A DNA stretch of 64,000 nucleotides, taken from positions 2,551-66,550 of the forward strand of contig JAFLEE010000019.1 of NCBI GenBank assembly GCA_017302015.1. Reading direction: 5' to 3'. The translations under genes were made by a program, and so were the position numbers. Below the pieces are notes generated by a model. That model was not told the DNA's origin and searched no databases. It was given only the letters and a program-made list of their open reading frames with translations. The stretch is from Spirochaetota bacterium (lineage in GTDB: Bacteria > Spirochaetota > UBA12135 > COTS27 > JAFLEE01). Below are positions 1-4,902 of this stretch, one piece after another. Every line of letters begins with the position of its first letter. Within the stretch, counting starts at the first letter, position 1.

Positions 1-346
1 GATTTTTGAAAATGCCCATAATTGATTTTTCTGGATTTCTTTCCAACCCTTTTGATTTCACGAAAATTGCCTTTGTATGGGAAAGTAATTTTGGTTTCAG
101 AAACTGCCGTTTTTGATTTTTCTGGATTTCTTCTCTTAACTCGTTGGGTCATTCGCTTTGGAGCACTACTTGATTATTTCCTTCTGATTTCAAAGAGGTT
201 ACTTTGGTTTGAAGATCAATTTCATTGCCCAGGTTCAGTTTTTGTTTCAGATTTCTTGATTTCTGATTCCTCATTTGATTCTGATCAAATTTCTACAATT
301 CCTATTCTCTTGATTCCTTTTCTGCATCTCTTTTGATTTCGCCTAA

Positions 347-464
347 CGTGGCGTTCAGCAGCGCCGATATTTAAATGGTCCTTTCGAATACGAAATACAT
401 TTCGAAAAACGGGTAAGTTCGAAGGCAAAGCCGGTGCGGCGTCTGCTGCAACGAATTGTTCGAG
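347..464 (-). other. attC of cassette 6 (about 118 bp). On the - strand: R'' CTCGAAC, then L'' aattcgttgcagcagacgccgc, then L' gcggcgctgctgaacgccac, then R' G|TTAGGC.
   Basis: L''/L' are inverse-complementary (cgttgcagcagacgccg versus cggcgctgctgaacg). R'' CTCGAAC is the exact reverse complement of G+TTCGAG, the cassette's own 5' end, as expected for a circularised cassette. The AACAATTCGTT...GACGCCGC start resembles class-1 59-be sites. Confidence 0.6.
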
Positions 465-599
465 TGCCTTTCTCATTCTGAGATTCCTGATCTCTTTTCT
501 TCATGTTTTCTCTATTTCTGAAATTCTTCAAATCTCTTCATCTGTCCTTACTTTTTGGATTTTGACCTAAGTTTTTTGTATTCCCCTGAGTCACTCGAA
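347..599 (-). repeat. Cassette 6, an ORF-less 253-bp gene cassette. It is copy 1 of duplicated element R1, near-identical to 3321..3574.
   Basis: Direct repeat of about 254 bp with only a few mismatches to 3321..3574. Bounded by G|TTCGAG (G 600 from the preceding attC) and ...ccacG|TTAGGC (G 347). No ORF of at least 60 aa that is confined to the element. Confidence 0.6.
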
Positions 600-650
600 C
601 GGTTAGGTTGAGCGGCGACCCTTGGGCGTCCGCTCGAACCTTTGTTAGGC
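600..650 (-). other. Short attC (about 51 bp) ending cassette 5. On the - strand: R'' GCCTAAC, L'' ggttcgagcggac, L' gtcgccgctcaacctaacc, R' G(600)|TTCGAG.
   Basis: Perfect RYYYAAC inverse core. Imperfect L''/L' inverted repeat (ggtt..gagcgg). Lies immediately 3' of cassette ORF 759..1403. The crossover G is followed by the start of the R1 cassette. Confidence 0.5.
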
Positions 651-758
651 CGTTAAAAATACCAATACCTCTCGACTGTTTTGTTGCCCAGACCTCTGGA
701 GAAGCAAATTTTGTTTTGGAATTTCATCATTGCATACTCATTTGTCAAACGTAGCGAA

Positions 759-1403
759 TCATCTTTCTGAGATTGAGTTTTTTACTTTTATCGAAAACGC
801 CAATACATCAACGCCATCTCGAAAATTAAATAACCGAATCGCCAGATTATTTCTAAAAATAGTCACGGAGTTCGTTTTATGTGCCCTTGTGCTGTCACTA
901 GGAAATCGAACTGGAGTGTTTCGCTCAATAAGTAAGATAGTGTTTGTCTCAATCATAATTAGCGAGTGCATCGAGGCATACAAGTCAACCGAGCCCGAGC
1001 CCTGTGTTGCCGATTCCAGAAAGACCATGTATCGAGTGGTCTCGCTCGACTTACTATAGTAGAGTTTGCCAACCGCAATTCTGTTTGTGGCCGAATCGAA
1101 ATACTCTAAGCCATCTTGATCGTTACATTTTAAAATTTTGAATGCACTCGGCTTATTGCTTCTTGAAAAAAATCGAGTTTCAACCCCAGAAATCCATGGG
1201 ACGTTCGATTCTGTTATTGGGCCATTGTTTCTTTGGCCACAAAATGAGGTTTCGTAGTCATTGTAGTGCAATCCCAACTTAAATACATTAAGTGAATTTG
1301 AAAAATCCACTATTTGTATCTTATGGTTGTATACTGATTCTGATATTGGAAAGCAATTAAGCGCCAAAATAATACATAGAAAAGAAATTTTACAACAAAT
1401 CAT
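759..1403 (-). CDS. Cassette-encoded hypothetical secreted protein (214 aa) with an N-terminal signal-peptide-like segment MICCKISFLCIILALNC.
   Basis: Complete ORF inside cassette 5 (1463..600). ATG preceded by a GAGGA Shine-Dalgarno 8 nt upstream. AT-rich codon usage typical of cassette DNA. No recognisable domain. Confidence 0.6.
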   Translation of the reverse strand: MICCKISFLCIILALNCFPISESVYNHKIQIVDFSNSLNVFKLGLHYNDYETSFCGQRNNGPITESNVPWISGVETRFFSRSNKPSAFKILKCNDQDGLEYFDSATNRIAVGKLYYSKSSETTRYMVFLESATQGSGSVDLYASMHSLIMIETNTILLIERNTPVRFPSDSTRAHKTNSVTIFRNNLAIRLFNFRDGVDVLAFSIKVKNSISER

Positions 1404-1463
1404 ATGATATCCTCAGATACTGTTGCTATATAAAAAGGTTTTATTATTCGCGCATTCATATAA

Positions 1464-2994: not shown

Positions 2995-3049
2995 CTCCAA
3001 AATCTTTGGCCGCCACGATGGCGGCCTCTTGCCCGACTATTGCGCATAA

Positions 3050-3252
3050 CGCCAGGCACTCAAGAAATGCACCGTCTAGAGCCTACCATGGAACCTTGTG
3101 GAAAGTTCACCGGTGCATTTGGTTCGGAAGAGCGCCCCAAAAGAGGGCGATAATTCCCAGAAAGCCCTCTTTTGGGGCGCTCTGGAGAACCTGACGAACC
3201 CCCGAGCCGACCTTGGCGAGCGGGGTGAGGAACTTGAGTGGCCCCGTTATAT
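3050..3252 (-). other. attC of cassette 2 (203 bp, 'giant' attC). Cassette 2 (3320..3050) contains only 68 bp plus this attC and has no ORF. On the - strand: R'' ATATAAC ... R' G(3050)|TTATGC.
   Basis: Same three-hairpin architecture as the other two long attC sites. ORF 3060..3281 lies entirely within the repeat and is judged non-coding. Confidence 0.55.
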
Positions 3253-3320
3253 GAATGCGCTCTAGTCAATTTCATCCCCATTTTCTTCTCTTTTCAATCA
3301 TTCCTCAGTTCTTCGCCTAA

Positions 3321-3574
3321 CGTGGCGTTCAGCAGCGCCGATATTTAAATGGTCCTTTCGAATACGAAATACATTTCGAAAAACGGGTAATTTCGAAGGC
3401 AAAGCCCGTGCGGCGTCTGCTGCAACGAATTGTTCGAGTGCCTTTCTCATTCTGAGATTCCTGATCTTTTTTCTTCATGTTTTCTCTGTCTCTGAAATTC
3501 TTCAAATCTCTTCATCTATCCTTACTTTTTTTGATTCTGACCTGAGTTTTTTGTATTCCCTTGATTCACTCGAA
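3321..3574 (-). repeat. Cassette 1, the attI-proximal cassette (254 bp). It is copy 2 of duplicated element R1. Its own attC lies at 3321..3438 (R'' CTCGAAC at 3432..3438 on the + strand as gttcgag; R' G(3321)|TTAGGC).
   Basis: Near-identical to 347..599. Bounded by G(3575)|TTCGAG and ccacG(3321)|TTAGGC. Confidence 0.6.
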
Positions 3575-3669
3575 CAAGAATTAGGCGATCGCCAGTAATC
3601 CCCCACCCACGCCCGTTTCACCCGAATTGTCCCGGTTCTGTTTTTTCACAAAAGAGCATAGCATGCCCT
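3575..3669 (-). other. Candidate attI and intI promoter region. The crossover is predicted at G3575|T3574.
   Basis: 95-bp region between the intI start codon and the first G|TT cassette boundary. Contains the palindrome ggcgatcgcc. The assignment rests on position only. If R1 copy 2 is not a cassette, attI would instead end at G3321. Confidence 0.35.
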
Positions 3670-4902
3670 ATGCAACTAAAACGCCCAAACCCCGATGAAA
3701 TCAAGGCTTTTAAAGCGCACTTACTCGATTCCGGCCATCCCGAAAACCGGGTGGCCTGGTCCATCAAATGGCTGGAACGCTTTTTGGTGGAATGTGCGGA
3801 TCCAATCTTGACGGACCAGACTGTCAACCAATATTTACATTCCCTGGAGGGGCGATTTTTAGACTGGCAGGTGAGGCAGGCGTCCGAGGTGATTTCCCGC
3901 TATGGGGCTTGGTCGGGTGGAGTGAGTTTGGATGGAGAGCCGAAGGATTCAGCGCTGATCGCCGAGGCGAAGGCGCAGATCCGCCTCCTCCACTATGCCT
4001 ATCGCACCGAGCAGAGTTACCTCGATTGGCATCGGCGGTTTCTCAGGTTTCGGCGGGAGGAGGGGCTCCCCCTTGAGGCGCGTGCACTATCCTCTTTTTT
4101 GAGGAAGTTAAATGAAGGCGATGGAGTAGCCGCCTCGACCCTCAATCAGGCGCATCACGCGGTGGCCTTTCTCTTTAAGCACGTCCTTCGGAAGGAGGTG
4201 GATGCCCTGGAAGAGGTGCCGCTGGCGAAGCGGCCGAAAAGACTCCCTCAGGTCATTTCGCGGGAGGAAGTTTCTCGCCTGCTTTCGCAGATGAATGGGA
4301 CCACGGGGATCATGGGTGCGCTCCTCTACGGTTGCGGATTACGACTGATGGAATGCTGCCGATTACGGATAAAAGATATCGATCTAACGGGGAAGGGGGT
4401 CATGGTTCGGGGTGGGAAGGGCGGGAAGGACCGCAGGGTGCCCTTACCGCGGCGGCTCGAAGAAATCCTCGCCCAACAGATGCGCGTGGTGAAGCTCCGG
4501 CATGAAAGCGATGCCGAGCAGGGCATCCCCGTGTCCCTTCCCGAGGGCCTTGAGCGGAAGTACCCCGGCGCGGGCCTCGAGTGGCCATGGTTCTACGTGT
4601 TCCCTTCGGGGTCGACGTGCCAGCATCCCCGCCTTGCCTTGGTGGTGCGCCACCATCTCTTCGAGGACACGCTTCAACGGGCGGTGAAGGTGGCGGGAAT
4701 CCGGGCGAACCTATCGGTGCCGGCCCATTGCCATCTATTACGCCATTCCTATGCCACCCATCTTTTGGAGGCCGGGACGGATATCCGCACCCTCCAGGAA
4801 CTCCTCGGGCACCGCGATGTGTCCACCACCATGATCTATACCCACGTGATCCAGAGGCCGGGCCAGATGGTATCAAGTCCGTTGGATCTTCTTGGGCCTT
4901 AA
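3670..4902 (+). CDS. intI: Integron integrase IntI (tyrosine recombinase, 410 aa as annotated). A GTG start at 3922 would give a typical 326-aa IntI.
   Basis: Motifs read from the translation: [14 protein letters not shown] (IntI N-terminus), the IntI-specific additional-domain signature [37 protein letters not shown] (HxxR) and [14 protein letters not shown] (catalytic Tyr). Confidence 0.92.
   Translation: [410 protein letters not shown]

Follow-up and report, generated by a model that had tools for sequence, protein, structure and literature searches.

A chromosomal integron with canonical attC sites and a family of candidate long attC sites in an uncultured, GC-rich Spirochaetota bacterium

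The superintegron of Vibrio cholerae is chromosomal and lies among housekeeping genes. Its integrase (VchIntIA) carries an additional domain, the intI/attI/cassette layout is divergent, and the array combines a near-identical family of attC sites, the V. cholerae repeats (VCR, about 120-130 nt long), with mostly orphan open reading frames (ORFs), gene-less cassettes and a GC content below that of the genome. In class 1 integrons the crossover is at G|TT, the simple site of attI takes the form of an inverted CCTAA...TTAGG pair, and attCaadA7 has a AACAATTCGTT motif and, in L'', a bulged base. Reports of integrons in Spirochaetes, Chloroflexi, Chlorobi, Verrucomicrobia, Cyanobacteria and Planctomycetes date from 2016 (PMC4889954). 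Models already exist for the attC types of spirochaetes, planctomycetes and acidobacteria, and lineage-specific attC types have been documented in chromosomal integrons of Spirochaetota (PMC8352920), in which the typical IntI is encoded in reverse orientation, the same as the cassettes (PMC9668308). Here we describe a locus at the left end of a 64,000-nt stretch of DNA (the window: contig JAFLEE010000019.1 of assembly GCA_017302015.1, positions 2,551 to 66,550) from a Spirochaetota bacterium. We are highly confident that it holds a complete chromosomal integron, made up of an IntI integrase, an attI site and cassettes stacked leftwards on the opposite strand with both canonical and long attC sites. 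A preliminary description of this DNA had considered integrons poorly catalogued in such hosts; that was overstated, given the reports above, and NCBI had already named the intI gene an integron integrase.

The integrase gene and the domains of its product are listed below.

3670 to 4902, plus strand: intI, integron integrase of 410 amino acids (TIGR02249, Pfam, PDB 2A3V and homologue alignment)
IntI residues 1 to 85, plus strand: extra N-terminal SAM-like domain (conserved N-terminus in homologues)
IntI residues 97 to 177, plus strand: standard SAM-like domain (Pfam)
IntI residues 195 to 393, plus strand: catalytic domain (Pfam), with the IntI-specific insertion at about 290 to 312 within it

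The product of 3670-4902 scores 357.9 bits against NCBIfam TIGR02249 (curated cut-off 265), more than 200 bits above the 141.7 bits of the XerC model and the 130.9 bits of the XerD model on the same 410 residues, and is therefore an IntI; the XerC/D identity that had been kept in mind as an alternative can be set aside. Its Pfam matches are PF13495 and PF00589. The closest solved structure is VchIntIA (PDB 2A3V, E 8e-63), and the alignment runs through the IntI-specific insertion, which lies opposite LPTALKEKYPNAPYEFRWHYLFPS (VchIntIA residues ~200-225). Catalytic residues R225, K250, H355, R358, H381 and Y390 are invariant across 12 aligned IntIs (this protein and 11 homologues), and the R-K-H-R-H-Y set also lines up with 2A3V. 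The additional-domain motif and catalytic residues from which the gene was originally recognised are thus borne out.

NCBI carries a 315-residue version of the protein ('MAG: integron integrase [Spirochaetes bacterium]'), encoded on a contig of 67,341 nt, an annotation that omits an extra N-terminal four-helix domain (window 3670-3954, IntI residues 1-95). The domain is kept in homologues of 406-471 residues, with the motif W..RFL...YL..L....DWQ..QA, and an AlphaFold model places its helices at residues 8-20, 25-41, 49-59 and 65-81. Profile-profile comparison by hhalign aligns it with the SAM-like core-binding domain (probability 94%, E 1.3e-7), which shows it to be a duplicate of that domain. 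The nearest proteins, at 61-62% identity, are encoded on three short metagenome contigs, and the contig of the closest homologue has only 143 nt upstream of its gene. Named relatives come from Desulfobacterota/Syntrophales, Thermodesulfobacteriota, Chloroflexota and Gammaproteobacteria at 43-53% identity. An extra N-terminal domain of about 85-110 residues is shared with a long-N-terminus environmental IntI clade (Syntrophales, Thermodesulfobacteriota, Thiorhodovibrio), but the named members of that clade are only 43-53% identical to the protein described here.

For the cassette map, the minus strand of the window was taken as the top strand and crossovers were placed at G|TT.

3575 to 3669, minus strand: attI region, crossover G at 3575, about 95 nt upstream of the intI start codon
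3574 to 3321, minus strand: cassette 1 (A1), 254 nt, a gene-less, purine-rich body of 136 nt and a canonical attC at 3315-3438 (124 nt)
3320 to 3050, minus strand: cassette 2, 271 nt, a 68-nt body and the candidate long attC long1 at 3044-3252 (209 nt)
3049 to 2229, minus strand: cassette 3, 821 nt, ORF168 (3000..2494) and the candidate long attC long2 at 2223-2435 (213 nt)
2228 to 1464, minus strand: cassette 4, 765 nt, ORF119 (2137..1778) and the candidate long attC long3 at 1458-1674 (217 nt)
1463 to 600, minus strand: cassette 5, 864 nt, ORF214 (1403..759) and a canonical short attC at 594-650 (57 nt)
599 to 347, minus strand: cassette 6 (A2), 253 nt, a second copy of cassette 1 with its attC at 341-464 (124 nt)
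346 to 1, minus strand: cassette 7, partial, starting TTAGGCGAA like cassette 2; 33.8% GC, purine-rich; leaves the window

The array therefore has at least seven cassettes upstream of intI on the opposite strand. The sequence is AT-rich up to base 1, and no attC was found in bases 1-340, within cassette 7, by the structural scan or the covariance model described below, so the array continues beyond the window, as was noticed at the outset. At attI, an inverted repeat of 8 bp consists of the left half-site TCGCCTAA, the spacer TTCTTG and the cassette 2 start TTAGGCGA, and is now interrupted by cassette 1. Removal of A1 restores TCGCCTAA-TTCTTG-TTAGGCGA, which by its letters looks like an attI simple site.

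Repeat finding and folding gave six inverted-repeat units left of intI (A1, long1, long2, long3, short and A2). The preliminary description had every unit ending in G|TTRRRY after an inverted repeat. The inverted repeats and a terminal G|TT on the minus strand are present in all six units; the full GTTRRRY is confined to three (A1, A2 and long2), the other R' boxes reading GTTATGC, GTTATAT and GTTCGAG. A structural scan of the 64 kb on both strands, which required AAC followed after 4-6 nt by an L stem of 8 bp or more (a 5' bulge being allowed) and GTT 4-7 nt beyond that stem, returned 12 matches, every one within 1-3700, and none in the remaining 60 kb of host DNA. In 200 dinucleotide shuffles of 1-3700, the same scan gave a mean of 0.27 matches and a maximum of 4.

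The canonical sites were also found with a covariance model, R1, built from 11 attC sites that all belong to other integrons, at loci found with the IntI relatives. The model has 15 pairs, comprising the R box and a bulged L box, and its alignment used full sites with the R and L pairs written by hand; RNAalifold, applied to attC arms trimmed to equal length, yielded no structure, as the 3' spacers are of unequal length. With filters off and both strands of the whole window searched, R1 matched the short attC at 594-650 (31 bits, E 2e-5), A1 at 3315-3438 (28.1 bits, E 1e-4) and A2 at 341-464 (24.3 bits, E 1e-3). The three matches lie on the minus strand, and the ends of each are exactly the coordinates earlier derived by eye. 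Nothing else fell below E 1 in the 64 kb, the next match having E 1.5. A covariance search without matches had been named beforehand as evidence that would speak against an integron; the custom model gave three. On 35 related loci R1 found its 11 training sites and 14 others (24-44 bits, 57-133 nt), and most of these 14 are oriented as expected and located on the array side of intI.

The three other units, long1, long2 and long3, half of the sites seen, have about double the length usual for attC and are 85-93% identical to one another. On the minus strand all three have the ends TAAC-5 nt-CACTCAAG...CTTGAGTG-6 nt-GTTA, with an L stem of 8 bp and the same orientation as the canonical sites. 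Their folds are far more stable than those of shuffled sequences (z -6.6 to -8.5; long1 has a dG of -56.6 kcal/mol and z -7.9). The consensus fold of four long copies contains 68 pairs, forming an R stem, an L stem and three internal hairpins. One of the pairs varies as A:T, C:G and G:C, and a single G is bulged on the arm that carries the canonical extrahelical bases.

The strongest argument that the long units are crossover sites comes from the pairing of their R'' ends. The variable R'' bases of long2 and long3 pair with the R' of the preceding site, which is where their own cassette starts, instead of pairing with their own R'. The R'' of long2, GCCCGACCATTGCGCATAAC, is complementary to the start of cassette 3, GTTATGCGCAATAGTCGGGC, at 19 of 20 positions, and the R'' extension of long3 to the start of cassette 4 at 18 of 20. 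Elsewhere in the array, R'' pairs with the start of its own cassette at 9/9 positions in cassette 1 and 9/9 in cassette 6. Such offset complementarity is expected only if DNA is cut and joined at G|TT. These observations point to the long sites as a lineage-specific long form of attC that IntI would use as substrates. We propose tentatively, at rather less than even confidence, that the 209-217-nt elements are a distinct attC class with canonical ends and a three-hairpin centre, recombined by IntI and missed by canonical models and default size filters. The default maximum attC size of IntegronFinder is 200 nt, which would exclude all three.

Some observations weigh against the integron as read here, or against the long sites as part of it. 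The identity of IntI, the structures of the sites, the boundary signatures and the composition are direct observations; the activity of IntI is a prediction from its sequence. The array is truncated by the window edge, so that the size seen is a lower bound. None of the cassette proteins could be given a function, and ORF214 is without any homologue. Cassette expression would start from a putative Pc promoter, and a sigma-70 scan for Pc, using a consensus that may not be that of the host, gave 6 sites against 6.1 expected, none of them near attI on the minus strand; the terminator and promoter scan was at chance level overall. In the fold of the long sites, the spacer bubble is nearly closed, with just one bulged base and no second bulge. 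R1 matched none of the three, and with about 170 nt their centre lies above the natural range reported for the variable terminal structure (VTS) of attC sites, given as 20-100 nt (PMC4889954) or 3-100 nt (PMC7439510).

The failure of R1 and the size of the centre would both be accounted for if the integron were real and the 209-217-nt repeats were some other structured element carried in cassettes, such as a REP- or MITE-like element, a terminator module or a small RNA gene. The span 3320..600 would then be a single cassette of 2.7 kb that contains three ORFs and ends at the short attC. The R'' of that site (GCCTAAC, 594-650) is indeed able to pair with TTAGGCGA, the start of cassette 2. A long-repeat copy found in a metagenome, described below, adjoins an IS256-like transposase, which also fits. 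We nevertheless consider this explanation unlikely. Each repeat has the TAAC...GTTA ends, the 5- and 6-nt spacers, the 8-bp L stem and the canonical orientation; the offset pairing between the R'' of long2 and the R' of long1, and between the R'' of long3 and the R' of long2, would not be expected without G|TT crossovers; exactly one ORF precedes each long repeat; and the repeats match no Rfam family.

A second possibility is that the integrase or the sites no longer function and the locus survives merely as an AT-rich island. The lack of a recognisable Pc and the orphan status of the cassette ORFs agree with this, as does the divergence of the two copies of cassette A, which differ at about 3-5% of positions and indicate that its insertion was not very recent. 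Against such a relic, intI is a full-length open frame with its catalytic residues and additional domain intact, the stems of the attC sites are preserved, one pair showing a compensatory change, and three ORFs of 119-214 codons are still open in stop-rich DNA of 35-38% GC. A decayed element is accordingly judged rather improbable.

The array appears to hold a record of its own assembly. In the mechanism proposed, intI would be transcribed rightwards, away from the cassettes that are lined up to its left on the other strand. Folded single-stranded attC sites would be bound by IntI, which would exchange strands at G|TT, insert circular cassettes at attI or at a resident attC, and excise them again. 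The two copies of cassette A, A1 and A2, are 95-97% identical. Identity starts exactly at G|TTCGAGTG, once beside attI (3575) and once beside the short attC (base 600), and both targets read G|TTAGGCGAA, as would result if cassette A had been inserted once between attI and cassette 2 and once between the short attC and cassette 7.

Cassettes 2 and 5 violate the rule that R'' pairs with the cassette start when each is taken singly, and satisfy it as a pair. The R'' extension of long1 in cassette 2 (3245-3260) is complementary to the start of cassette 5 (1450-1465) at 16 of 16 positions, and the R'' of cassette 5 (GCCTAAC, in the short attC) fits the start of cassette 2 at 7 of 8. The simplest account, which needs canonical events only, is that a single long attC, its outer stem 16 bp long, once joined cassettes 2 and 5 as neighbours and that its G|TT later received cassettes 3 and 4; this adjacency is a probable reconstruction from the pairing pattern. 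The alternative that cassettes 2 and 5 are reciprocal chimeras produced by a non-canonical event was rejected, no homology having been found at the breakpoints.

Further copies of the long attC were sought by scanning metagenomes with a 20-mer taken from it. One true relative was found, on JGI contig L042 (Ga0154020_10225197), where a copy 93% identical to long2 occupies positions 98-310; a 20-mer match on contig L043 proved to be due to chance, and a scan of viral contigs for the long attC gave no match. On L042 an ORF at ~380-1540, within about 70 nt of the long attC copy, resembles an IS256-family transposase when its translation is read, which suggests that an insertion sequence may have entered a related cassette array. 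A search of the array hairpins against Rfam returned no family at gathering score, only chance microRNA matches. The C run that opens the third hairpin of the long sites varies in length, with 11 C in long3 (1607-1624), 6 C in long2 (2376-2384) and in the L042 copy, and 5 C in long1 (3197-3203), and looks like a slippage-prone homopolymer. GC-rich hairpins followed by CTCTT on the plus strand occur at 1688-1702, 2186-2205, 2449-2463 and 3008-3027. They border ORF168 and ORF119 on both sides, just beyond the R''/R' extensions of the long attC, and accompany the L042 copy too; in the plus-strand direction they resemble weak terminators facing intI.

The GC content is 37.3% in the cassette bodies, 54.9% in the attC sites and 42.2% over bases 1-3669, compared with 58.8% in intI and 66.1% in the remaining 59 kb, leaving a gap of 24 points between array and host. 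The 35-40% first given for the array thus holds for the cassette bodies and is slightly low for the array as a whole, and the sharp contrast with host DNA, then put at about 67%, was confirmed. This contrast had been taken as the mark of a foreign cassette pool. At the loci of IntI relatives, however, the array side is often 10-20 GC points below the host side (0.42 vs 0.58, 0.45 vs 0.65, 0.39 vs 0.60), with the IntI gene usually intermediate. The gap seen here is at the high end of this common pattern and so is no special evidence of foreign origin.

A step from 42% to 66% GC over about 1.5 kb in a metagenome-assembled genome (MAG) could also arise if an AT-rich array and a GC-rich chromosome had been misassembled, or if a recombinase of the XerC/D type happened to lie beside unrelated repeats. 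Either is extremely improbable. The junction has the canonical layout, with attI 95 nt upstream of intI and the cassettes divergent from it; intI itself is of intermediate composition (59%); many related IntI loci have a similar GC step; and the IntI model scores 358 bits on the protein against 131-142 for XerC and XerD.

The sizeable ORFs of the array (3000..2494, 2137..1778 and 1403..759) are all three on the minus strand, pointing away from intI as previously stated. ORF168, ORF119 and ORF214 have nothing significant in Pfam, NCBIfam, PHROGs or PADLOC. The only database match of ORF168 is its own NCBI record, named 'DUF2004 domain-containing protein', and ORF214, which has a signal-peptide-like N-terminus, has no match among 1.84 billion representative proteins. 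ORFs of 119-214 codons are unlikely to stay open by chance in such AT-rich DNA, and they were therefore treated as orphan genes. Of the seven cassettes, three are purine-rich and carry no gene; Vibrionaceae superintegrons, too, contain gene-less cassettes (10.1101/2023.11.21.568050). The gene-less bodies (1-346, 465-599 and 3439-3574) are purine-rich on the cassette strand, with a plus-strand AT skew of -0.25 to -0.35, and are dense in short repeats of the GAATC/GAAATC type; an exact 20-nt direct repeat, TTGATTTTTCTGGATTTCTT, occurs at 22-41 and 113-132.

In its integrase, for which VchIntIA is the best solved relative, its divergent layout, its chromosomal position among housekeeping genes, its mostly orphan ORFs and gene-less cassettes and its array GC below that of the genome, this integron is like the V. 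cholerae superintegron. A near-identical attC family is also present, comprising three of the six sites at 85-93% identity, but, unlike the VCR, its members are 209-217 nt long and have a three-hairpin centre. Sedentary chromosomal integrons are marked by large arrays, with some 20 or more attC sites of a homogeneous type; the part of the array inside the window has six sites. The array further differs in mixing three attC types, in its 24-point GC gap, in leaving the window at base 1, and in having no toxin-antitoxin cassette in the portion within the window. With class 1 integrons it shares the G|TT crossover and the form of the attI simple site, and its A-type attC has the AACAATTCGTT motif and bulged L'' base of attCaadA7, whereas the transposon or plasmid context and the resistance genes of class 1 are absent here.

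The host label (NCBI: Spirochaetes bacterium) is shared with other Spirochaetota integrons, such as those of Treponema. Unlike the typical arrangement in that phylum, intI is on the plus strand with the cassettes and attC top strands on the minus strand, a divergent layout, and the nearest named IntI relatives come from Desulfobacterota/Syntrophales, Chloroflexota and Gammaproteobacteria. If the host label is right, the integron is atypical for Spirochaetota.

The context of the integron is chromosomal DNA rich in genes for carbohydrate-active enzymes (CAZymes). Products of the flank genes include two small cytochromes c, regulators of the AraC type, members of GH2, GH39, GH71 and GH51, heparinase-like and pectate-lyase-like proteins, acetyl-CoA synthetase, pyruvate kinase and RecQ, in agreement with the polysaccharide-degrading lifestyle first suggested from gene content. 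The next named relatives of RecQ are 63-66% identical and come from several phyla. No transposase was found among the scanned flank ORFs, and a search of plasmids with the whole array matched no plasmid record. Inside the GH-rich region, three large ORFs (37531-39405, 40945-43347 and 50394-52145; 624, 800 and 583 amino acids, GC3 0.78-0.88) match no Pfam family at E 1e-5 or better and may encode uncharacterised carbohydrate-active proteins.

At 14 of the related IntI loci (L005, L006, L008, L011-L013, L016, L017, L021, L023, L024, L026, L029 and L030), the contig ends less than 1 kb upstream of intI. Assemblies presumably break in repeated attC arrays, so that array sizes are systematically under-seen in MAGs. 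The MAG 'bacterium isolate STL-UNK1' has two IntI loci (L007 and L009) with six attC model matches downstream of intI on the same strand, a reverse-orientation layout unlike that of the window.

The element is as expected from current integron biology; its less usual features are the long attC family and, perhaps, how clearly the insertions can be traced. It provides a well-resolved integron from an uncultured lineage of GC-rich, polysaccharide-degrading bacteria, with an integrase whose nearest named relative is at most 53% identical, and its array holds its own insertion history, with insertions at attI and at attC whose edges are exact to the base. If the long sites are functional, canonical models and size limits would detect just half of this array. 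Should they prove to be a distinct attC class, integron surveys would under-count cassettes in such lineages, and a terminal structure far larger than any known would be tolerated, or used, in strand choice and in binding by IntI.

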